Shown piece after piece: positions 2,638-55,582 of a DNA stretch of 64,000 nucleotides. Positions within the stretch are counted from its first letter, which is position 1; every line of letters starts with the position of its first letter. Below the pieces are notes generated by a model. That model made no database searches. It saw nothing but the letters and a program-made list of their open reading frames with translations, and was not told the DNA's origin. The DNA comes from a virus (Duplodnaviria; Heunggongvirae; Uroviricota; Caudoviricetes): IMG/VR virus record IMGVR_UViG_3300043313_000558; one strand, written 5' to 3'. A program made the position numbers and the translations under genes.

Positions 2638-4584
2638 CTACTTGCCCTTCTTCTTCGGCACGATCTTCTTCTTGGGTCCGACGGTCTTGGCGTTGGCCTG
2701 CTGCCGGGCCTGGGCTTCCTTGAGCTTGCCCAGGAACTTCTGACGGCGCAGGTCGGCGTCCTTGCCCTCCTGATCCCGCTTGAAGTCCTTCTCCTTGCCC
2801 TGCTGGTCGCGCTTGAAGTCGGCTTCCTTGCCCTTCTGGTCCCGCTCGTGGTCGACCTGCTTGAACTTGTTGTCGACCTCCTTGCCCTGAAGATCCAGCT
2901 CCTTGCCCTTCAGGTCCATCTCGTTGGTGGCCTGAGCGTTGGGGTCCTGGGCAGCCAGCGCCTGCATGTCGGCCTGGTGCTGCACCTCCATCGCCTGCTG
3001 CTGCTCCATCTGCGCCTGCTGGGAGCCCATCACCTCCGGGTCGACAGCGGCCCGTGCCTGCCCGCGAGCCTGGCCCACGGCCTCGTTCTCCATCTGGTCC
3101 TGGTGCGGGCTCTCAGAGGCCATCTGGGCCTGCTCTGGGGTCATCCCGCCTTGGACCATGCCGAACTTCTGGTTGGAGCCCATGAACTCCATCGCGGTCT
3201 GCTGCTGAGCCATCTCGCGCTTGGCCTCCAGCACCTCGTCCGGGATGGCAGGCAGGTGAGCGACCTCGCGCAGGAACTTCTCCATGTCCGGGTCGGGGAA
3301 GAACTGCATGCCCAGCCCGGCCATGGACGTCATGAACCCGGCCAGCTCGGCCAGGTTGGGCGGGTCCACATTGGTCGGACGCAGCTTGGGCAGCTCTTCC
3401 AGCTGCCAGTTGTTCAACTCGAACAGGCGGGGGATGGCGTGCCGGTTGAACACGTCCGCGATGGCCGTGGTGATGGAGTTCAGCGCAGAGCGGAAGATGC
3501 CGGTCTTGTCCACGTGCATCGCGTAGGAGCCGGTGCCCTCGTGGCCGAGCAGCAGGAAGTCGGCCATGGTGACCATCAACATCCGCTGCTCGTAGCGCTG
3601 GATCAGCTCGTTGGTGTTGAAGCTCTTACCGCCTGAGCTGCTCATCAGCTCGAAGCGGAAGAGCTCCTTGCCCTTCTCGTCGTACTCCAGGGGGAGAACA
3701 AGGCCCTCGTGTTCGTCGCGCCGAACGTTTTGGACCATTTTCTTGAAGCTCTTGTAGACCTTGTTCTCGTTGGTTCCCTCGGTCGCCTTCATGTACGAAG
3801 AAGGCAGCATGGCTACCGGCATGCCAGCGAGGTCACGCTCTACCCCGATCGCCTCGAACTCCTCTAGGCGCTTCTTGAAGAACCAGGGTCGGTACGCAGT
3901 ACGCAGGATCGAGGTGCCCTCGGGGTTGCCCTTGTGGATCCCGGTCCTAAAGAGCAGCGAGCGCTCGATCGGGATGACGCAGGTCTTGTAGTACGGGGGC
4001 GGGATCTGCACATAGGCCTTCACCCCTCCGCTCTCGTCGAAGACCCAGCGCAGGTGGGTCTCCTGAGCACGGATCGGGATCTTCCGCCAGCCGATCCGAC
4101 CGTCGGTGTACCGGCTGCGCTTCTTGGGGTCCTTCTCCTGCGGGCCGACCCGCTTCTTGTAGACGATCTCGTGCCAGGAGAAGCCGTAGACCAGCATCGA
4201 GAGGATCTCGGAGATCATGTCGTCCCAGGTGTGCGACATGTCCTCCATGCACTCTTCGACGAACTGGACCGCATCCGAGCTCTCCGGGGAGTTGTCGTCC
4301 CCGACCACGGTCCACTCGACCTGCCGGATCAGCTTCTCGATGGAGAACAGCATCGCCCCGATGATCGGGTCGTTCAGGGCCATCTCGCGGAACACCGCGA
4401 TGGCCTTGCGGCCGCGTAGCGCAGGCAGGAACTCCTCGTCGATCATCCCCGCAGCGCGCTTGACCCCGGTGACCCCGATCTCGGTCAGTGGGGAGACCCG
4501 AGTCGGCGCGGAATCCAGGTCGATGGTCAGGTCGTCGTAACGGGAGATGTCCCCGTAACGACCTTGGCCGGACGCGATGGTCAT
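2638..4584 (-). CDS. portal-like protein (648 aa) with highly charged repetitive C-terminal tail
   Basis: size, position downstream of terL in the transcription direction, acidic core and C-terminal D/K/E repeat region (DLKGKELDLQGKEVD..KRDQQGKEKDFKRDQEGKD) typical of portal barrel extensions; RBS acaggagg upstream; assignment is by inference only. Confidence 0.4.
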   Translation of the reverse strand: MTIASGQGRYGDISRYDDLTIDLDSAPTRVSPLTEIGVTGVKRAAGMIDEEFLPALRGRKAIAVFREMALNDPIIGAMLFSIEKLIRQVEWTVVGDDNSPESSDAVQFVEECMEDMSHTWDDMISEILSMLVYGFSWHEIVYKKRVGPQEKDPKKRSRYTDGRIGWRKIPIRAQETHLRWVFDESGGVKAYVQIPPPYYKTCVIPIERSLLFRTGIHKGNPEGTSILRTAYRPWFFKKRLEEFEAIGVERDLAGMPVAMLPSSYMKATEGTNENKVYKSFKKMVQNVRRDEHEGLVLPLEYDEKGKELFRFELMSSSGGKSFNTNELIQRYEQRMLMVTMADFLLLGHEGTGSYAMHVDKTGIFRSALNSITTAIADVFNRHAIPRLFELNNWQLEELPKLRPTNVDPPNLAELAGFMTSMAGLGMQFFPDPDMEKFLREVAHLPAIPDEVLEAKREMAQQQTAMEFMGSNQKFGMVQGGMTPEQAQMASESPHQDQMENEAVGQARGQARAAVDPEVMGSQQAQMEQQQAMEVQHQADMQALAAQDPNAQATNEMDLKGKELDLQGKEVDNKFKQVDHERDQKGKEADFKRDQQGKEKDFKRDQEGKDADLRRQKFLGKLKEAQARQQANAKTVGPKKKIVPKKKGK

Positions 4585-5377: not shown

Positions 5378-7405
5378 TCAGGTCCCTATGTCTTCGACGA
5401 CGAACTGTCCGGGTGAGGTGGCGCTGCCCTGCATGGTGATCACGCCGGTGCCCGAGGCCCGGGCGACGGAGACCTTGAGGACGTGTGAGCCCGCGGTGAA
5501 CTGGCCGATGTAGGTGGCGGTCATGTTGAAGGCGGTGGTCGCCGGTGCCTGGCTGATCGAGGAGACCAGCGAGGTAGCGCCATCACGCAGGATCAGCTGG
5601 ATTCGGTCACCGGCCACAGTGGTGATGAAGTTGGCCCACACGTTCAGCTTGTACCAGCGACCCGCCACACAGGTGATCGTCGTGGTCAGCCCCGCGATAT
5701 CCACCGGGGTGGTGCTGTTGGCGGTGTTGGCGGTGTTCGCGGTGATCTGGCCCATCCCCATGATCCCCAGCGGACGGTAGTCGACCTCGGCGACCTTGTT
5801 GTCCACGTAGTTCTTGGTGGTGGCGTGGTCGGGGTTGACCGGGTCGGCCATCCCGTAGATCTTCTGGCCGTTCATGTTGAAGCTGACCCCGACGGTGATG
5901 TCGCCCATCCCCGCTGGGTTGTAGTCCAGCTTGGTAGTGCGGATCTCGGTCTTGCTGAACGGGTCGGGCGTGCTGCCCCCACTACCGCCACTGAAGGCCA
6001 CCCAGGCGTTGGTCGTACCACCGACCCAGATGTAGCTCAGCCCGGTGTCGGTCTCGTAGATGATCAGACCGTCCTGGACGAAGGTTGGCCGAGTAGAGCT
6101 GGTCACCGTCCACACGTTGGCGGCGCTGTAGACCCACTTCAGCCCGTCCCAGATCGCCAGGGCACGCTGGTTCTGGTTGTAGTACAGCTGCCCAGCCCCA
6201 CGCGGAGTGGGGAAGGAGAACAGCCCGCCGGTGTCGACATGGGTCTGGCAGCGCCAGGTCTGGGAGTCGGTGCCCAGCGTGGCCACCGGGTCGGTCTGGG
6301 TGAAGATCTTCATGTAGCTGGTGGTGCCAGCCAGCACCTTGACCTTGGCACCCTGGGTGACCTTGGCTGCGGTGTTCGCATCGGTAGCCCGGCTCCAGGC
6401 TCCGGCAGCTGCGACGTAGATCCCGTTGTCGAACGCGTTGGTCTGGTTCTTGACCAGGATCCGTTCGGTGGCGCTGAAGGCGTAGCCGTCGATGGTCGAA
6501 GTGCCGGACAGGGTGATGTTGGCGGTGGTCGCACAGGCGACCGGGGCCAGGTACCGATCCCCGCTGGCGGTGAGCACTGTCCCGTTGATCGTGGCCCCGC
6601 TGGCGGCCAGCTGGGTGAAAGTGGCCGCACCGGCCTGGGTGATCCTGGCGACCTCAGTGCCCGCGTTCTTCCAGGACAGGTCGGTGTACAGGATGTTGGC
6701 CTGGTACTTGTCCACCGTCGGCATCTCGTTGCCGGTCATCGGTCGGTCCAGGGCCCACTCGATCTCGCCCACCTGAGCAGCAGCACCAGGAGGTGCGGTC
6801 AGGGTGAACTCCACCTCGGAGAGCTGGTAGAAGCTGTTGTAGGCCTTCTGGATCAGCTGGTCGGGGCTACGGCGCACCTCGTCGACCGTGTTCAGGGTGT
6901 GCCAGCCCAGCCCATGCGGGGCGTAGTTGCAGTAGACCCGCACGCTGACCGACTCGGTCCAGGACACGTAGTAGTGACTGACGATGAACCAGCCGTAGGG
7001 AAAGCCGTAGAAGAAGCCGTTGAAGTTGACGTTGAGGACCACGTAGTTGTTCGCCGCGATGGTGAAGCCGCCCTCGTAGTCCCCGTCGAAGAACTGGTCG
7101 ACCTGGGCGTTGGACAGAGTGCCGAGCAGGGTCCCGCCGTTGCGGTCGTAGATCTTGGCGGTGACGGTCCAGCGCTCCCGGGCCTTGAACATCGCGTCGT
7201 TGAGCGCGCTTTGGTACAGGTGTCGGCCACCGAACGGGTTGGCGTTCATCACCAGGTCATCGTTGGACAAGGTGGCGTACCAACCGTTGCCGTTGCTGAT
7301 GTAGTGCTTGCCGTCGGTGGTGTTGAAGTAGGTGCTTCCGGCAGGCGCGATGGCAGGCGCGGTGGCATAGCGCTGCGCCCCGGTGATGCCGTATCGCTGC
7401 GGCAT
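5378..7405 (-). CDS. tail fibre protein (675 aa)
   Basis: real start MPQRYGITGAQRYATAPAIAPAGSTYFNTTDG at 7405 (ATGA overlap with upstream stop); the first 163 codons of the listed 838-aa ORF are R/H-rich out-of-context read-through; shares YFNT[AT]D and TKNYVD motifs with 7405..8652. Confidence 0.6.
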   Translation of the reverse strand: MPQRYGITGAQRYATAPAIAPAGSTYFNTTDGKHYISNGNGWYATLSNDDLVMNANPFGGRHLYQSALNDAMFKARERWTVTAKIYDRNGGTLLGTLSNAQVDQFFDGDYEGGFTIAANNYVVLNVNFNGFFYGFPYGWFIVSHYYVSWTESVSVRVYCNYAPHGLGWHTLNTVDEVRRSPDQLIQKAYNSFYQLSEVEFTLTAPPGAAAQVGEIEWALDRPMTGNEMPTVDKYQANILYTDLSWKNAGTEVARITQAGAATFTQLAASGATINGTVLTASGDRYLAPVACATTANITLSGTSTIDGYAFSATERILVKNQTNAFDNGIYVAAAGAWSRATDANTAAKVTQGAKVKVLAGTTSYMKIFTQTDPVATLGTDSQTWRCQTHVDTGGLFSFPTPRGAGQLYYNQNQRALAIWDGLKWVYSAANVWTVTSSTRPTFVQDGLIIYETDTGLSYIWVGGTTNAWVAFSGGSGGSTPDPFSKTEIRTTKLDYNPAGMGDITVGVSFNMNGQKIYGMADPVNPDHATTKNYVDNKVAEVDYRPLGIMGMGQITANTANTANSTTPVDIAGLTTTITCVAGRWYKLNVWANFITTVAGDRIQLILRDGATSLVSSISQAPATTAFNMTATYIGQFTAGSHVLKVSVARASGTGVITMQGSATSPGQFVVEDIGT

Positions 7406-27081: not shown

Positions 27082-28320
27082 TCATAGCCCGTCCTCGTCC
27101 CTGTCCTTGATCTCCTCCGCCTCGTCCTTGGTGATCTCGCGGAAGTCGCCGTGGTTGGCGTCGTAGAGGTTGAAGAACAGGTCACCGGAGGACCCGTGCC
27201 GGTTCTTCTCGATGGAGGACACCGCAGCGCCCTTGCCGAAACGCTTCATGGTGATCACCACGTCGCCGTCGTTGCCCAGGTGGTCGCTCTGGGCCAGGGT
27301 GTGCAGGGCTGGCGGACGCCACCGCACGCTCACTCCATCCCGGTTGATCTGGGAGGCGGCGATGATCGGGTGGTACTTGGCCAGACAGGTGGCTTTCAGC
27401 CCGTTGGAGATCTCGGCGATGATCCGGTAGTCCTTGATCGCAGGCAGGCCCTCGTCGTTGCGCATCAGCCCGACGTAGTCGATCACGGACAGGTCGAAGT
27501 CACCTGCGTGGCTGTTCACCAGGCCCGGGGTGACCAGCCCCATGGACATCTCGTGGATGTGCACCGAGCCGGGGACCTGCTCCTCGATGGACTGCAGCAA
27601 GTGCTTGTAGTCGGCGTGCGGCCAGGTCCGGCGCAGCATCGCGTTGGCATCGACCTTGTGCCCGAGGCGACGACCCAGCGCAGCGTGCAGACGGACCTGG
27701 GCCTGCCTGCGGGTCATCTCCAGCGAGTAGAAGACCACGCTCTTGCCGTGCACCGCCGCCTCGGCAGCCATGTCGAGCAGGAAGGAGGACTTGCCGTGGC
27801 CCTGCCGGGCGGCGAAGTACCACAGCTCACCGGCACCGATGCCGTTGGTCCGGGTCTCCAGCGAGTCCCAGGGGACCGGGATCCGGGGCTCTCGCACGTC
27901 CTCGTAGCCGTCCAGGAAGGCGTAGTCGACCAGGGCGTTGCCGGGCTTGGGGGATACCACGTTCATCTTGCAGTTCTCGAAGAGCTTGTAGGCCCCCTCC
28001 ACGTCGTCGCGGTCCAGGGCCATGGTGGCGTCACGCAGCCGTTGCTGCATCTTGCGGCGGTCGAACTTCATCCGGATCTCCCGGGCGGGCCAGCCTGCTG
28101 AGGCGTGGTCGGCCGCGTACGGGAAGGCCGGGAAGGCGGCCAGGAGTTGGGAGCCGGACGGACAGGTGCCGTACTGCCGGTAGTTGGTCAGCACCCACTC
28201 GTACTCGTTGCGGTGGCCGGTGAAGTGCTCGGGCCGCAGCCCGTAGGACTCCCCCAGACCGGGGTCGTTGCTGTTGACGATGGCGGAAATGAGCAGCGTT
28301 TCAGGAGTCGTCCGTGCCAT
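27082..28320 (-). CDS. dnaB: DnaB-family replicative helicase
   Basis: Walker A ARQGHGKSSFLLDMA; RecA-like C-terminal domain layout; conserved leader motif shared with dnaE. Confidence 0.75.
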   Translation of the reverse strand: MARTTPETLLISAIVNSNDPGLGESYGLRPEHFTGHRNEYEWVLTNYRQYGTCPSGSQLLAAFPAFPYAADHASAGWPAREIRMKFDRRKMQQRLRDATMALDRDDVEGAYKLFENCKMNVVSPKPGNALVDYAFLDGYEDVREPRIPVPWDSLETRTNGIGAGELWYFAARQGHGKSSFLLDMAAEAAVHGKSVVFYSLEMTRRQAQVRLHAALGRRLGHKVDANAMLRRTWPHADYKHLLQSIEEQVPGSVHIHEMSMGLVTPGLVNSHAGDFDLSVIDYVGLMRNDEGLPAIKDYRIIAEISNGLKATCLAKYHPIIAASQINRDGVSVRWRPPALHTLAQSDHLGNDGDVVITMKRFGKGAAVSSIEKNRHGSSGDLFFNLYDANHGDFREITKDEAEEIKDRDEDGL

Positions 28321-28353
28321 GCGGGGGTCCTTCCAGGTTCAGAGCGTCTGGCG

Positions 28354-28382
28354 AACCTAGCAGAGTTGCCTAGGGTTGACAA
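28354..28382 (-). promoter_or_regulatory. putative promoter upstream of dnaB (TTGTCA-17-TAGGTT on minus strand)
   Basis: plus-strand aaccta at 28354-28359 and tgacaa at 28377-28382 with 17-nt spacer. Confidence 0.3.
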
Positions 28383-28674
28383 TGGTCCGAACGGCCACAT
28401 CCTCGGGCCACACCCAGACCATCCGGGTCCTGCCCTGGACCTGCACTCCCCCGTTGTGCGGGCATGGCCAGGTGGTCTTGTGCCCACAGGTGGTACAGCG
28501 GGCATGGACCGAGGAGATCTGGCCGGAGAAGCAGGTCTTGCACAGGTAGGTGACCCGGAAGTAGGTGTCGTCGAGCTCACGAACAGGGCGGACGCGTCCG
28601 TCGTGCAGCTTGGGGCAGTCAGGGTGAGCGTGGACCGCGCCCTTGCGGAGCCGACCAGTGCCGTACCAGGTCAT
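28357..28674 (-). CDS. Cys-rich 105-aa protein
   Basis: internal start MTWYGTGRLRKGAVHAHPDCPKLH..CKTCFSG..CTTCGHKTTWPCPHNG. Confidence 0.35.
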   Translation of the reverse strand: MTWYGTGRLRKGAVHAHPDCPKLHDGRVRPVRELDDTYFRVTYLCKTCFSGQISSVHARCTTCGHKTTWPCPHNGGVQVQGRTRMVWVWPEDVAVRTIVNPRQLC

Positions 28675-28792
28675 GCGACCATCCTCCACCCGCAGGCGAG
28701 GCACCTGAAAAACGTTTTGGATTTTGACACAAAAATAGGACCAGAAGCCCCCGCCGAAGCGGGGGCATAAAGGTCCAGAAACACGAATATTT

Positions 28793-29188
28793 TCAGGAGC
28801 CCCCGTCCGCGAGGACGGGGGCATAGAGGGCAGGGCGGTACGACTTCAGTCGGTGACAGTTGGAGCAGAGGGTCTGTAGGTTCTCGGCACGGTGGTCAGA
28901 CCGGTCGCCGTTGATATGGTCCAGGTCCATCTGACACAGGTCACCCACGAAGCCGCAGCGCACGCAGGTGTTGGTCTTGTGGTCCTTGAAGGTGTTGCCA
29001 GCGCGGTCACGGTTCATCCGCTGCTGGTGGGCTCGATAGGCCACGTCACACCGGTAGGTGTTCCCGTAGACCTTGATCTTCACCGGCCCATCCACCGCGC
29101 ACACCGCGGTGAGGGCCTCGAAGTCCTTGTTGGTCAGCTTGTGTACTTTGACTCCCATGGGGACATAGTACACCCCACCCAAACGCAA
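28793..29188 (-). CDS. HNH endonuclease
   Basis: CVRCGF..DLDHINGDRSDHRAENLQTLCSNCHRLK canonical H-N-H. Confidence 0.7.
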   Translation of the reverse strand: MRLGGVYYVPMGVKVHKLTNKDFEALTAVCAVDGPVKIKVYGNTYRCDVAYRAHQQRMNRDRAGNTFKDHKTNTCVRCGFVGDLCQMDLDHINGDRSDHRAENLQTLCSNCHRLKSYRPALYAPVLADGGS

Positions 29189-37396: not shown

Positions 37397-37497
37397 GTGG
37401 TTGGAGCACAGGATCGAGATGTCGGTGTTGCGGCGCACGTTCTGAAGCGCGGTAGTAGACACGGTGCAGTGTCCTTTCTGGTGGTGGGCATGAAAAA

Positions 37498-37543
37498 GCG
37501 GGCGGAGCCGTGTGCGTCTCTCGCAGGACACAGCTCCGCCCGC
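37498..37543 (-). terminator. 11-bp-stem hairpin followed by T5 on the minus strand, directly downstream of a TATAAT box
   Basis: gcgggcggagc / gctccgcccgc; plus-strand gaaaaa at 37492-37497. Confidence 0.5.
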
Positions 37544-37547
37544 TCCT

Positions 37548-37615
37548 TCTATTATAGGGCATTTTTGAGCCTTTTACCAACTATTTGGCCCCTTTTTGCC
37601 CCCTTTTTGCCTCCT
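37548..37615 (-). promoter_or_regulatory. conserved promoter-like element copy 1 (TCAAAAATGCCCTATAATAG on minus strand) with upstream GGCAAAAAGGGG direct repeats
   Basis: plus-strand attata at 37551-37556; second copy with the same core at 55172-55216. Confidence 0.45.
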
Positions 37616-38433
37616 TAGGCGTCGACCTTCGACATCTCCAGGAAGGCCCGCTCGACCGCCGCGAAATCGACCTCGGGGGCCTTCAGGTCCGCGAGCTCCT
37701 CGAAACGGTCGATGATCCGGTGCGCCTGGGACAGCAGCATCCGGTGCTGGATCTCCTTGCCCTGCTCGTCCCGGGCGAACAGGAAGTCCGCGTCGAACTC
37801 GTCGTCCAGGAAGGTGTCGAAGCAGCTGGCCATCTCGAAGACCTCAGAAGGCACCTTGGGCGCGTAGGCCATGGTGGCCGCCTCCCGGGCCTTCCAGACC
37901 CGCTCCTGAGCGTCACGGAGCAGATTCTGCCGGTTGATCTGGTCCTTGGCGGCGATCACCTCCTGACAGGCCTTGATCGTCTCCCTGGCCATGAAGATCT
38001 TGGCGTCGCGCTCACCACGACGGCGCAGCCGCTCCCAGTGCCGGACGTTGTTGACCAGCCGGTCGGTGAGGATCTGCATCCAGACCTCCAGGCCACCGTT
38101 GCCGACCAGGTAGGTGCCCACGGTGCGGTGGGCCAGGTCCAGGGCCTTCATCGAGCAGGCCGGGCAGAGCAGCCGGGCCTCACGCTGGACGACAGGGTCA
38201 TCCTCGCCAGGCCCGGTGGAGATCTCGTAGGTCTTCAGCTCGGTGTGCTTGCACAGCGAGTCGTTGACCCCGTGAATCATCCGGGCCAGGAACTTGTCGG
38301 AGCAGGCGGGCAGGTCGGAGATGTCCGGGTCGCCGGTCTCCCAGGCGATCACGTTCATCGCGCAGCCGTAGCCGGATCCCCTCAGGTGGGATCCGACGGC
38401 CAGGCGCAGGGGTTCGGTGATGGAAGTGGTCAT
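37615..38433 (-). CDS. hypothetical 272-aa protein
   Basis: internal start MTTSITEPLR; ATGA overlap with upstream stop. Confidence 0.45.
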   Translation of the reverse strand: MTTSITEPLRLAVGSHLRGSGYGCAMNVIAWETGDPDISDLPACSDKFLARMIHGVNDSLCKHTELKTYEISTGPGEDDPVVQREARLLCPACSMKALDLAHRTVGTYLVGNGGLEVWMQILTDRLVNNVRHWERLRRRGERDAKIFMARETIKACQEVIAAKDQINRQNLLRDAQERVWKAREAATMAYAPKVPSEVFEMASCFDTFLDDEFDADFLFARDEQGKEIQHRMLLSQAHRIIDRFEELADLKAPEVDFAAVERAFLEMSKVDA

Positions 38434-39239
38434 GAGTCGTCCTCGTCGTCGGGGGTGGGCATGTCGGGCGGGATCATGTTCTGCAGGATCCGGGTGATCA
38501 CCTCGGGGATCTTCTCCTCGGGGTCTCGGGTGTCCTGGCGACCGATCGGTCCCAGGTCGTGGGTAAACCACATTGCGCAGTCCTGGCCCCGAGCACCGGC
38601 GTAGTAACCGGCGAACAGGGCCTCGATGTAGACCCCGGTCATGATGGTGGCCATCGCGAACCGGGCGTCGTTGGGGTCCAGGACCAGGAAAGCTGCCTTG
38701 AAGTCGTCCATCTCGGCCATCGCACCGTCGGCGTAGCGCGCCATCCGGTTACCGATCGCGTCGATGAACTTCTGCCCGAGCATGATGTTCATGTACTCGG
38801 GCCTGGTCTCGTGGTAGTAGTACGTGTGCTGGATGGCCCGCAGGAACTGCTCGTGCAGCGCAGCGTCGGGAAAGGCCTTGAGGTCATCCATGATCGTGTC
38901 GTTGGTAGGACCACGCAGCGGGTCGAAGTTGAAGTCCATCAGGTCGGTCATGCTCTCGGGGTTGACCCGCATGGCGTTCTTGAACTCCTCGATCGCCGCG
39001 TTGCGCTCCTCGTCGGTCTCGGCCGCGGTCATCCTCGCCAGGATGGCGATGAACTCCTCGATCTCGGCGTCGGTGTAATCGTGCTCCTCTCGGTTCTCGA
39101 CCAGGTAGGCCACCGAGGCAGCAAAGCCCTCGATGTCCTCGTTGGTTCGTACCAGGCCGGGCTTTGCGTACTCCTTGTAGATCAGATCCCGGATGTGTTC
39201 CCGGAACTCGTTGGGGTTATCCAGGCAGGTCAAGCACAT
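38430..39239 (-). CDS. hypothetical 269-aa acidic protein
   Basis: internal start MCLTCLDNPNEF preceded by aaaggagag RBS. Confidence 0.45.
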   Translation of the reverse strand: MCLTCLDNPNEFREHIRDLIYKEYAKPGLVRTNEDIEGFAASVAYLVENREEHDYTDAEIEEFIAILARMTAAETDEERNAAIEEFKNAMRVNPESMTDLMDFNFDPLRGPTNDTIMDDLKAFPDAALHEQFLRAIQHTYYYHETRPEYMNIMLGQKFIDAIGNRMARYADGAMAEMDDFKAAFLVLDPNDARFAMATIMTGVYIEALFAGYYAGARGQDCAMWFTHDLGPIGRQDTRDPEEKIPEVITRILQNMIPPDMPTPDDEDDS

Positions 39240-39266
39240 TGCGTACGCTCTCCTTTTGAACGTAGA

Positions 39267-39312
39267 AAAGGCCCCCGGTTCACTCATTGGGTTGAGTTGG
39301 CCGGGGGCCTTT
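39267..39312 (-). terminator. intrinsic terminator: 12-bp perfect stem + TTTT on minus strand
   Basis: aaaggcccccgg / ccgggggccttt with 22-nt loop. Confidence 0.55.
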
Positions 39313-39811
39313 CGCGGAGTATCTCTGGAAGGACTTCTCCTCTGCTTCACTCACTAGCTGCTCGGGGAGCCTTTGAGCGAAACGGTTACAAGCGGGTCGG
39401 TGGGCCGCACTCTCGTGGCGACTCACAGGCGGTTATTCCCGCGTTGTGCTTCTATTGTATCACGGTTGTGTCAGACCTTCAAGCAGTCCTTTGATCGACT
39501 CCACGTGGTCCCCGGGAAGGCGGATCTCGTGGGAGGTCATCAGCACCACCGTGATCGGTTCACTGCCTCGTAGTTCGCGCAGGTACACACCCTCGACCTT
39601 CGAGGGGAACACCCACACGTGGTCGAAGATCTCGATCACCTCATACTCCTTATCTCCCGCTCCAGGGCTTCCACCTGGTGCCTCTTGATGTGCTGCCACG
39701 CGGAGGTAACCGCGTCGAGGTGTCGGTAGGCGTAGTCCGCCCAGCTCCCACACAAGCGACACGAGACCCGCCATCGGAAAGGCGGGAACGTGTAGTGCCT
39801 CCGGATCCGGA

Positions 39812-40084
39812 TCATCTTCCAAGTTCGGCTGGCTCTGCGGGTTGGTTCCAGGTCACCGCCACTACCGGGGAGGTGATAGTGGTGGGCAACGTGCCGTTTG
39901 GATTGATCCACGGCCACAGGATGACCAGGCCGATCTCGGTCTGTGCGAGTGCTTGATACGGCCTCCACTCGCCATCAACTCCCACTCGGGGGGTCGGGTC
40001 GTTGACCCCGCTCAGGCGGCGGATCCGGCGAAGTCGCTCGTCCACTTCGTAGAGCGAGTTCGCGGTCTGGTACCGGACGGTCAT
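39812..40084 (-). CDS. hypothetical 90-aa protein
   Basis: ORF. Confidence 0.35.
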   Translation of the reverse strand: MTVRYQTANSLYEVDERLRRIRRLSGVNDPTPRVGVDGEWRPYQALAQTEIGLVILWPWINPNGTLPTTITSPVVAVTWNQPAEPAELGR

Positions 40085-51586: not shown

Positions 51587-51862
51587 TCAGTTGGAGAGGG
51601 AAATAAGGGTGAAGATCACCCAGATGAAAAAGATCGCCGTGCCTCCGAGCACGACGACGATCAGCCACCATTTGGCGGCTGTTTGGAGCCAGGGCTTGGC
51701 CTTGGGATCTTGGCGGACCATGTTCTGGGAGGTCATCCGGCCCTGGTCGTTGATCTGCACCTCGGACTTGAACCGGGGCTTGGACCACCACAGGCGGACT
51801 ACTGCCGCGCCCATGGTGGTGATCGAGGCCAGGACCGCGAAGAACGGCGCGATAACCCTCAT
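51587..51862 (-). CDS. 2-TM small membrane protein (91 aa)
   Basis: internal start MRVIAPFFAVLASITTMGAAVV; second helix WWLIVVVLGGTAIFFIWVIFTLI. Confidence 0.4.
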   Translation of the reverse strand: MRVIAPFFAVLASITTMGAAVVRLWWSKPRFKSEVQINDQGRMTSQNMVRQDPKAKPWLQTAAKWWLIVVVLGGTAIFFIWVIFTLISLSN

Positions 51863-54804: not shown

Positions 54805-55093
54805 CTCCGGTCTCCTCGGGGTCCGCGTAGAAGACCCCCAGGCAGCCCTGGGGGTGGGTGGTGACCTTGAAGCGCTGGGCGTCCAGGTCGTAGTGGTCGT
54901 AGATCATCGACCAGGTGGTGCCGAACAAGGACCAGGCCTCGGTGCGGGCGTCCTCCTCGTTGTCGGCCACGATGATGACGTACCCGTCTGGGTGCATGCC
55001 CAGGGGGTGTGGGTGGGTGCGGTACTGCACCCCGAAGGTGACGTAGAAGACGTGCTCCCGCGGGGTGGAAGCGGGGATCATCGGCTCTGCCAT
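54794..55093 (-). CDS. hypothetical 99-aa protein; first gene downstream of the promoter/hairpin cassette
   Basis: ORF with gaaaggg RBS. Confidence 0.4.
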   Translation of the reverse strand: MAEPMIPASTPREHVFYVTFGVQYRTHPHPLGMHPDGYVIIVADNEEDARTEAWSLFGTTWSMIYDHYDLDAQRFKVTTHPQGCLGVFYADPEETGDGA

Positions 55094-55124
55094 CGTGCTT
55101 CCCTTTCTGTTTAGGGCAGCAAAA

Positions 55125-55166
55125 AGCGCCCTGCTCCCAGGCCGGGCGTGGCCTGAAAGAGGGCGC
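55125..55166 (-). terminator. compound hairpin + T5 on minus strand, 18 nt downstream of a TATAAT box
   Basis: outer stem gcgccct / agggcgc, imperfect inner stem caggcc / ggcctg; plus-strand aaaaa at 55120-55124. Confidence 0.45.
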
Positions 55167-55171
55167 GAAAA

Positions 55172-55216
55172 CTTGCGTACCCCTATTATAGCAGTTTTTG
55201 ACCCGTTTTTACTACT
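55172..55216 (-). promoter_or_regulatory. conserved promoter-like element copy 2 (GGTCAAAAACTGCTATAATAG, extended -10 TGnTATAAT)
   Basis: plus-strand attata at 55185-55190; the core matches copy 1 at 37548-37600. Confidence 0.45.
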
Positions 55217-55582
55217 TTATGGCAGTGATATTGCCAGCGCAGCCGAGGGCACCGAGAACTTCTTCCCGGCCAGCACGGGCTGTGCTTGGGGCAGCGGAAC
55301 CGAGTACTCCATGTCCCCGTTGTACTGGGCGTTCCAGCCCACCACGTGAGTGACCCGGGTAGCGGGCATCCCGGTCCAGGTGATGTCCGAGGTGTTGAAG
55401 ATGGCCCGTCCGTCCGGGTCACCGAAGACCACCTTGATCCGGGCATAGGAGCCGCCGAAGACCTCGGAGGCGTAGGCCCCGGCGATGTTCGGGTCATCGA
55501 AAGCCAAGCCCAGCCAGAGCGTGGTCAGATCAGCCAGCCACAGGTTGATCCGGTAGTCGGAGAACAGTCCTTGTGCCGCCAT
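55217..55582 (-). CDS. small tail protein (121 aa), last gene of tail operon
   Basis: coupled to the 724-aa tail gene; beta-rich composition. Confidence 0.4.
   Translation of the reverse strand: MAAQGLFSDYRINLWLADLTTLWLGLAFDDPNIAGAYASEVFGGSYARIKVVFGDPDGRAIFNTSDITWTGMPATRVTHVVGWNAQYNGDMEYSVPLPQAQPVLAGKKFSVPSAALAISLP

Follow-up and report, generated by a model that had tools for sequence, protein, structure and literature searches.

Genes and sequence elements at 37.5 kb

We analysed a 64,000-nucleotide stretch of tailed-phage DNA (hereafter the window; IMG/VR record IMGVR_UViG_3300043313_000558, Caudoviricetes) and in it a short intergenic region at 37.5 kb, called cassette A, for which the original prediction had described a promoter, two direct repeats and a hairpin. 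All the described elements are present on the minus strand, to which the positions in the window given below refer, and they are more than chance would provide. All credible genes of the window lie on this same strand, according to a map of open reading frames (ORFs) filtered by GC content at third codon positions (GC3). In descending coordinates they run from tape-measure and tail genes through two Gp80-like fibre proteins to a long run of small orphan genes, then to an AAA ATPase, DnaB, a primase and a DnaE-type polymerase, and finally to terminase, portal and head genes. The genes that follow cassette A constitute the replication module and encode zinc-finger, AAA, DnaB, primase and DnaE proteins.

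Upstream, the region is bounded by the TAA stop codon (37615-37617, from the sequence and ORF 37615-38571) of a gene of 272 amino acids (aa), the second gene of a unit driven by a predicted promoter at 39.46 kb. Downstream it ends at the GTG (37460-37462) with which a 92-aa gene of this strand begins; the product of that gene matches P0048 at 99%. The predicted promoter of cassette A, lying between these two codons, is thus intergenic. In the near-identical strain L003 the homologue of the 272-aa gene ends at the same place, and the gene call for the downstream gene starts at the equivalent GTG.

Two tandem copies of GGCAAAAAGGGG follow the stop codon (37600-37611 and 37589-37600, together 37589-37611), as originally described, with a period of 11 bp and one G in common. 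They are identical in L003 and absent from L188, a relative at 59% identity; apart from L003, no other copy was found in the window or in 188 fetched loci. Taken alone the 12-mer repeat is weaker evidence, since two near-matches were reached in 2 of 100 shuffles. The repeats are nevertheless the two outermost members of an array of five helically phased A-tracts (37562-37608), which start at 37608, 37597, 37586, 37575 and 37566 and are centred at about -62, -51, -41, -30 and -20 from the predicted transcription start. The spacings are 11, 11, 11, 9 and 10 bp, the array extending into the -10 hexamer. The Fourier amplitude of A-tract phasing at a period of 10-11 bp is 15.5 in cassette A, which is the maximum of the window (background 0.33 +/- 1.05), and the second-highest signal, 8.8, belongs to the sibling cassette B described below. 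Because the 12-mer occurs elsewhere only in L003, and because of the signal of the A-tract array, we read the repeats as part of a bend: they would be a local duplication that builds a phased, presumably bent region resembling an upstream-promoter (UP) element, and neither a repeat family nor a set of operators.

Within the array a -35-like hexamer TTGGTA (37575-37580) is separated by a spacer of 18 nt from the -10 hexamer TATAAT (37551-37556), which is inside the core TCAAAAATGCCCTATAATAG (37549-37568) shared with cassette B. Together the hexamers match the consensus TTGACA/TATAAT at 10 of 12 positions (TTGGTA at 4 of 6), and TTGGTA-18-TATAAT is the best promoter-like (sigma-70) site between 30 and 50 kb. 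The standard spacing between -10 and start places the predicted transcription start at A37544, the seventh nucleotide after the -10 and one nucleotide before the hairpin.

The hairpin is GC-rich, 46 nt long (37498-37543) and starts 7 nt after the -10, with the basal arms that had been reported, GCGGGCGGAGC (37533-37543) and GCTCCGCCCGC (37498-37508). These form a perfect stem of 11 bp, in which 10 pairs are G-C, followed by 5 more pairs, a bulge of 3 nt, 3 pairs and a loop of 5 nt. The folding energy is -39.9 kcal/mol (z = -7.8; RNAfold). Neither the extension of the stem to about 20 pairs nor the run of five T (T5) that abuts the hairpin (37493-37497, seen in the sequence and in a scan for hairpins with T-runs) figured in the original prediction. 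The leader CATGCCCACCACCAGAAAGGACACTGCACC (37460-37492) then reaches the start codon and includes the Shine-Dalgarno sequence GAAAGGA (37472-37478). Against Rfam no match was obtained at gathering thresholds; a permissive search returned only sub-threshold look-alikes of microRNA precursors, i.e. generic hairpins.

A sibling cassette at 55.1 kb

Cassette B (55091-55219) was delimited by its sequence, its match to the core motif, its fold and the T-run scan. It closes the structural block, immediately behind the last fibre-like gene, and small early-type genes follow it; cassette A is located 17.6 kb beyond it, ahead of the replication module. From its upstream end cassette B comprises the TAA stop codon of the last tail-fibre-like gene (55217-55219), A5 tracts at 55206-55210 and 55195-55199, the extended -10 TGCTATAAT (55185-55193, with TATAAT at 55185-55190), a stretch of 18 nt, the hairpin GCGCCCT...AGGGCGC (55126-55166), T5 (55121-55125), a Shine-Dalgarno site and the ATG (55091-55093). 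Its hairpin folds at -36.6 kcal/mol (z = -5.9) and begins 12 nt from the predicted 5' end, and the 5' leader can pair partly with the U-tract/GCUG region. Cassette B, like its relatives, has no good -35; TGC or TGG directly precedes TATAAT.

The two cassettes share the core TCAAAAA-TGC..TATAATAG, at 37549-37568 in A and 55183-55201 in B, so that the second copy announced by the original prediction is real. The gapped core gave 2 matches for 0.00 expected and TATAATAG gave 2 for 0.02 expected. TATAAT itself occurs at only two places in the 64-kb window, on either strand, and both are in the cassettes. The alignment of A and B reads (A/T)GTAAAA-N3-5-TCAAAAA-N3-5-TATAATAG ... hairpin ... CGCTTTTT-N2-TGCCC-N5-6-CAGAAAGG-N ... 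start codon, in which the leaders correspond as TTTTT-N2-TGCCC-N5/6-CAGAAAGG. The hairpins of A and B are unrelated in sequence; both keep a long GC stem and T5. By this alignment, cassettes A and B are homologous modules.

On the gene strand of the window only ten runs of at least five T were found by a custom hairpin-plus-T-run scan. Cassettes A and B have the best hairpin+T5 scores of the ten by a wide margin (-37.1 and -33.5 kcal/mol, respectively). As a matter of rough arithmetic, the chance that both TATAAT hexamers have a T5 within 80 nt is (10 x 80 / 64000)^2, or about 1.6e-4. No further copy of the core was found in 16.5 kb of the ~19.7 kb of the genome outside the window. The genome-wide count is therefore two copies in ~81 of ~83.7 kb, which does not agree with the expectation of a motif dispersed over operon starts.

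The bases after the T-run are alike at several unrelated terminator-like sites of the phage group (TTTTTCATGCCC, TTTTTGCTGCCC, TTTTTTATGCCC and TTTTTATGCCC), namely at 37486-37497 and 55114-55125 on the minus strand of the window, and at 3396-3409 and 6047-6059 of the related locus L187. The T5 run is also the site of a junction: in a metagenomic contig of 1.2 kb (L175, positions 1-60) the identical 99-aa gene and leader are present, but precisely from the T5 run on they give way to 46 nt of unrelated sequence (26% GC), and the downstream gene is also different. Either the assembly is chimeric at this T-run or the contig is a recombinant.

Conservation in related phages

Relatives were reached through homologues of the genes directly downstream of each cassette. 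For cassette B three were obtained, L184, L186 and L185, in which the downstream protein is 81, 73 and 62% identical, respectively. All three keep the order fibre-gene stop, A5, TGN-TATAAT, 18-19 nt, GC hairpin, TTTTTGCTG, ribosome site and ATG. The -10, the TG, A5, the basal stem GCGCCC/GGGCGC and T5 are invariant in this family. The upper stem shows one compensatory change from U-A to G-C and two wobble swaps, a covariation that rests on four to five distinct sequences, and in L185 it is shorter and different.

For cassette A the closest relative is L003, which is 95% identical overall and 98-100% identical from the cassette onward; its upstream gene has diverged to ~78% at the DNA level and 71% at the protein level. 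Since identity jumps to 98-100% exactly at the cassette, cassette A marks a mosaic boundary and is inherited with its downstream gene. L003 has two substitutions in the cassette, both in the upper stem (-39.2 vs -39.9 kcal/mol), and keeps the -10. In L188, where the upstream gene is unrelated, the corresponding region reads TTGCAT-17-CATACT, a 40-nt leader, a different GC hairpin of 10 bp, ATTTTGCTG, a Shine-Dalgarno sequence and ATG; CATACT thus stands in place of the -10 of cassette A, and T4 in place of its T5. The block at the recombination boundary corresponds to 37620-38320 of the window and 4400-5080 of L003, and similar diverged blocks are found at 33.3-34.1 and 39.3-39.5 kb.

As a control, at least 120 bacterial terminators of the B type (GCGCCC..GGGCGCTTTTTGCTG) were matched. 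They are generic, come from many phyla and include no relatives. Among those sharing the B-type basal stem and tail, a -10-like motif is present within 60 nt upstream in 1 of 120. This result indicates that the promoter-before-terminator arrangement is a conserved property of the phage group and not a general by-product of terminators, and its conservation across diverged relatives argues that the order itself is selected. The module is statistically rare, is duplicated at the late-to-early boundary, and is conserved while the sequence of its hairpin changes.

A predicted promoter followed by a predicted terminator

Several features point to a promoter of the housekeeping-sigma type (sigma-70/sigma-A): the -10 TATAAT, the -35 or the TGN of an extended -10, the intergenic position and the conservation. 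An intrinsic (Rho-independent) terminator is suggested by the GC-rich stem-loop, the adjoining U-tract and a structure kept while the sequence changes. Because the GC-rich stem precedes the U-tract in the direction of transcription, the hairpin and T5 would form an intrinsic terminator oriented with the genes. Judged by its sequence, this is a real conserved regulatory cassette, of which each part is ordinary and the arrangement, the compactness and the conservation are unusual. We propose that cassette A is a boundary of transcription units in an unusual order, promoter then terminator, combining a promoter, a leader attenuator and a 5' cap; to this proposal we give an even chance of being right.

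The original prediction saw in the hairpin a stabilising or regulatory RNA structure at the 5' end and discounted a simple terminator. The latter point is not supported, because T5 abuts the stem: A and B are the two strongest hairpin+T5 elements among the ten T5 runs, and in the relatives of B the T5 is invariant while the upper stem changes, no part of the element being better conserved than the U-tract. As a stabiliser needs no U-tract, the hairpin would not be a stabiliser alone. The position of the hairpin at the very 5' end of the transcript is predicted in A, but is not a common feature, the hairpin of B being offset by 18 nt. A stabilising role is plausible for the transcripts that read through.

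In our proposal a host promoter of the sigma-70/sigma-A type, TTGGTA-18-TATAAT, preceded and spanned by the bent, UP-element-like A-tract array, would start an RNA one nucleotide before a very stable GC hairpin and U5, and polymerase would meet the U-tract at about +48 to +52. The terminator would then have three presumed jobs. It would halt the polymerases arriving from the upstream unit, i.e. at A those from the two-gene unit of the 39.46-kb promoter, and at B those from the structural operon, which otherwise has no terminator before the early genes. It would also halt a large share, probably most, of the initiations of the cassette itself, releasing a hairpin RNA of ~52 nt, and so would work as a built-in attenuator. 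Lastly, mRNA made by read-through would keep its 5' terminus base-paired, immediately ahead of the ribosome site that serves the first replication-module gene. Actinobacteria have 5'-end-dependent RNase J and RNase E, so a base-paired 5' end is expected to be protective.

We considered a start within the stem, by which local transcripts would escape termination since their RNA could not form the hairpin, and rejected it because the stem begins at the 8th (A) or 19th (B) nucleotide after the -10. With the whole stem transcribed, the terminator would affect polymerases of either origin, the upstream unit and its own promoter.

A number of points weigh against this proposal. The sigma specificity and the efficiency of the terminator are assumed, and the host is placed only by Actinomycetota-like affinities. 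As the T5 tract is short, termination might be weak. The hairpin follows the -10 by 7 nt in A vs 18 nt in B, so that its role as a 5' cap cannot be the same in the two. The usual order, terminator then promoter, would stop the upstream polymerases without wasted transcripts, and the conserved reverse order hints at a purpose beyond that of a leaky attenuator. The covariation comes from only the four to five distinct sequences mentioned. A fourth promoter candidate, 33 nt upstream of the start of the dnaB-like gene, has neither hairpin nor T-run. Finally, in one distant relative (L183, found when the 724-aa tail protein was used to scan IMG/VR) the fibre gene is followed by a plain convergent terminator and not by the cassette.

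Comparison with known systems

In the PR'-tR' region of lambdoid phages (6S RNA / StxS) a promoter-proximal terminator yields by default a short terminated RNA, and Q provides antitermination (PMC7547250). The likeness lies in a strong, constitutive-looking promoter followed by an intrinsic terminator on the same strand, ahead of the genes to be served. The differences are that the predicted RNA is only ~52-58 nt long, with little beyond the terminator, vs 194-258 nt in lambdoid phages; that here no Q-like gene or sigma-dependent pause element was found; that the polymerase would be actinobacterial; and that the cassettes precede early/replication genes. In Pseudomonas phage 201phi2-1, ONT-cappable-seq revealed terminators directly after start sites and short RNAs derived from 5' untranslated regions (5'UTRs), which the authors read as control of timing or antitermination or as sources of small RNAs (PMC11512511). 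That phage is of another type, with another transcription machinery, and its elements were found by experiment, unlike the present cassette, which was found in the sequence and has no sequence in common with them. Another known arrangement is that of promoter-coupled terminators, in which termination occurs ~10 bp upstream of the start, with the T-tract immediately ahead of the -10 (Fletcher et al., bioRxiv 10.64898/2026.08.19.745784). There too a single short intergenic region accommodates a promoter and a terminator of adjacent units on the same strand, with sequence common to both, but the order is reversed in our case, T5 lying ~50 nt downstream of the predicted start.

Stem-loops at the 5' terminus are well-known stabilisers of mRNA, as in the leaders of E. 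coli ompA, T7 phi10, B. subtilis phage SP82 and aprE; they have no U-tract and are not terminators. The hairpin of A resembles them in being 0-1 nt from the predicted 5' end and just upstream of the ribosome site. The cassette hairpins differ in carrying a U-tract, and that of B differs also by its distance of 12 nt from the predicted 5' end. Upstream of strong promoters (rrnB P1, Bacillus phage promoters), UP elements and phased A-tract bends are likewise familiar. The array of cassette A has the same A-tracts every 10-11 bp, from about -20 to -62, but it continues through the spacer and the -35, and an 11-bp duplication with GC flanks is what it is made from.

The timing of gene expression in phages of high-GC Gram-positive bacteria is little known, and the thousands of sequenced actinobacteriophages seldom have their promoters and terminators annotated. 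The cassette would offer a compact consensus promoter and a strong terminator in reverse order, with a hairpin RNA of predictable size (~52 nt). A gated terminator would point to an antitermination factor that is new. With a terminator that is only leaky, the cassette would be a natural promoter-attenuator part, usable for the tuning of expression in actinobacteria.

A related unit at 39.46 kb and other candidate promoters

A third promoter-leader-terminator unit, related to the cassettes, was found at 39237-39482 by the promoter scan, the T-run scan and comparison with L003 and L187. Its predicted promoter TTGAAG-17-TGATACAAT (39454-39482) overlaps the stop codon of ORF 39460-39822, and the context of its -10, AATAGAAG, resembles that of cassette A. 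A leader of ~185 nt, which holds a mini-hairpin GCGG-GAAUAA-CCGC, is followed by the hairpin GGCCCCCGG..CCGGGGGCC (39270-39309), TTTT (39266-39269), a Shine-Dalgarno site and the ATG (39237-39239). L003 has the same layout; the leader is only ~56% identical, with the promoter and terminator kept. In L187 a promoter and leader homologous to those of the 39.46-kb unit are followed by two hairpin/T-run elements before the next gene.

The mini-hairpin, with its purine-rich loop, is present in this form or as variants 16-18 nt after the -10 in the leaders of three related phages (39432-39439 on the minus strand of the window, 3312-3320 in L187 and 1096-1103 in L188), the core of the loop being GGAATAAC or GAAGATAAC. 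Its exact 8-mer occurs once in the window, and the mini-hairpin is absent from cassettes A and B. By its form it may be a recognition hairpin of the boxB kind.

The fourth promoter candidate mentioned above is weaker: TTGTCA-17-TGCTAGGTT, with an extended -10 at 28354-28362, within 28320-28385. Close to it is the third AT-rich patch of the window (28697-28830, TATTTTTGTGTCAAAATCCAAAACGTTTTTCAGG), which contains no TATAAT and is situated after an HNH-like gene and two GC hairpins, before the gene upstream of dnaB. This patch may belong to a different promoter class or be an origin-like region. L004, a contig from a distantly related actinophage, has three near-identical extended -10 promoters, TGATAG[GTA]AT, at 1140, 3113 and 14489 on the plus strand. 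Behind each come two leader hairpins that are conserved, of which the second reads GACTTCCC-N4-GGGAAGTC, and no T-run, so that this module is of a different design.

Alternative roles of the cassette

The same promoter and terminator could form an antitermination gate, with a strong constitutive promoter, an efficient leader terminator and a phage or host factor that makes polymerase resistant to it, as for lambda N/nut or Q/PR'-tR'; the short hairpin RNA would then be a by-product. We regard this as rather unlikely, yet it is the foremost of the alternatives. It would account for an order kept at three loci and in diverged relatives, for the fact that these are the strongest canonical terminators of a genome which has to be read on one strand through many GC hairpins, and for the mini-hairpin GCGG-GAAUAA-CCGC in the sibling leaders of three phages, which is reminiscent of boxB; the lambdoid and 201phi2-1 systems are precedents (PMC7547250, PMC11512511). 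However, no antiterminator came to light. For the gene upstream of A neither Pfam nor the PDB gave a sequence match, and the confident AlphaFold model of its product (predicted local distance difference test, pLDDT, 89) has no Q-like or otherwise informative fold. Inspection of the initially transcribed sequences of A (AGCGGGCGGAGC...) and B (ACGCAAGTTTTCGCG...) disclosed no TANNNT-like element, so no -10-like pause site, and the cassettes precede early/replication genes instead of late genes. An N-like protein was not identified either, and the boxB-like mini-hairpin with its GGAATAAC loop, found in the 39.46-kb leader, L187 and L188, is missing from A and B. Moreover, if every strong promoter were gated, the first expression would need leakage. 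A bolder form of this idea, which we find more doubtful again, is that the cassettes at 55.1, 39.4 and 37.5 kb and the mini-hairpin GGAAUAAC make up an undescribed temporal programme based on antitermination, with a factor lacking recognisable homology to N, Q or other known antiterminators. The phage would in that case open its early and replication modules by making the host RNA polymerase resistant to terminators.

The remaining alternatives give the hairpin or the repeats a role of their own. The interpretation first put forward, a pure 5' stabiliser that shields the mRNA from RNase J/RNase E, with a T-run that is incidental or serves only the upstream unit, is improbable in our judgement. 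It agrees with the predicted start one nucleotide before the stem in A, with the pairing of the B leader to the U-tract/GCUG region, which would sequester the 5' end in read-through RNA, and with the L004 promoters, whose leader hairpins begin within ~5 nt and lack a T-run. But T5 abuts the stem in A, in B and in all the relatives of B (T4 in L188), although only ten such runs exist on the gene strand; the offset in B is 18 nt; and the stems exceed by far, in length and strength, what a cap needs. A gene for a small RNA, whose product of ~52 nt (A) or ~58 nt (B) would be abundant and act in trans, e.g. as a decoy or regulator, seems to us quite improbable. A consensus promoter and a terminator with nothing between them do form a complete minimal gene, and functional short phage RNAs derived from 5'UTRs or PR' are documented (PMC11512511, PMC7547250). 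Yet the hairpins of A and B have no sequence in common and relatives replace the upper stem and loop freely, leaving neither a conserved seed nor a conserved recognition surface. The RNA would be almost wholly double-stranded, and Rfam gave no match. It is the conservation of only the basal stem and the U-tract that makes a small-RNA gene unlikely. Least probable is an element acting at the DNA level, in which the repeats and bent array would be iteron-like sites bound by a DNA-binding protein of the phage, or part of an origin ahead of the replication genes, with the promoter providing activation by transcription or priming. The repeats fall in phase on one side of the helix at about -45 to -67, the bend signal is the strongest of the window, and zinc-finger and replication genes follow just downstream. 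Nonetheless the 12-mer occurs nowhere else beyond L003, the repeats are absent from cassette B and from the orthologous site of L188, transcription alone explains the -10, the hairpin, T5 and the leader, and as a candidate origin the AT-rich patch at 28.7 kb, beside dnaB, is no worse.

The source phage and its relatives

The window, with a GC content of 63-64%, is part of a phage genome of ~83.7 kb that exact-protein look-ups recovered repeatedly from metagenomes, including a JGI contig of 82,841 bp and an ENA contig of 83,700 bp. Since its proteins have affinities to those of phages of Arthrobacter, Microbacterium, Curtobacterium, Gordonia, Brevibacterium and Mycobacterium, the host is most likely an actinobacterium, and the phage most likely an uncultured, lytic-looking actinobacteriophage. 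No relative at the DNA level was found among GenBank phages (megablast, blastn). Scans of IMG/VR with the exact and gapped core motif, and of a metagenome contig collection with the core motif, returned only low-GC chance matches or ordinary promoters, and a protein-guided scan of IMG/VR with the gene upstream of cassette A gave no match; by these scans the phage lineage is absent from the IMG/VR and metagenome contig collections covered. In Arthrobacter and Curtobacterium phages the homologues of the gene that follows B are in mid-operon positions and were uninformative.

A simple scanner for promoter and terminator consensus sequences misses the promoter of cassette B, which has no -35, and both terminators, since the apical part of the A and B hairpins exceeds its loop limit. 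Terminators were therefore scored by the custom hairpin-plus-T-run scan. In Pfam searches ~30 further early/replication proteins gave zinc-finger, primase, nuclease and collagen-like matches and included no sigma factor and no antiterminator.

The 272-aa protein encoded just upstream of cassette A (37615-38430; family P0001-P0043) was considered as a Q-like antiterminator and rejected. Besides lacking Pfam and PDB matches, it belongs to PHROG families of no assigned function, and its model has only generic helical-bundle matches. Its N-terminal domain has the invariant residues C24, C44, C61, C90, C93 and H102, is probably zinc-binding, and recurs, with the annotation 'hypothetical', in ~155 Mycobacterium phage genomes.

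Two minor observations concern other parts of the genome. A strong hairpin followed by CTTTTT (51633-51658) falls within an apparent membrane-protein coding region and is probably a coding by-product and not a terminator. In the ENA version of the genome, outside the window, an HNH_3 endonuclease gene lies on the opposite strand among the head-tail connector genes (L179, 1230-1631, minus strand); the JGI version does not have it, and it is likely a mobile homing-endonuclease insertion.

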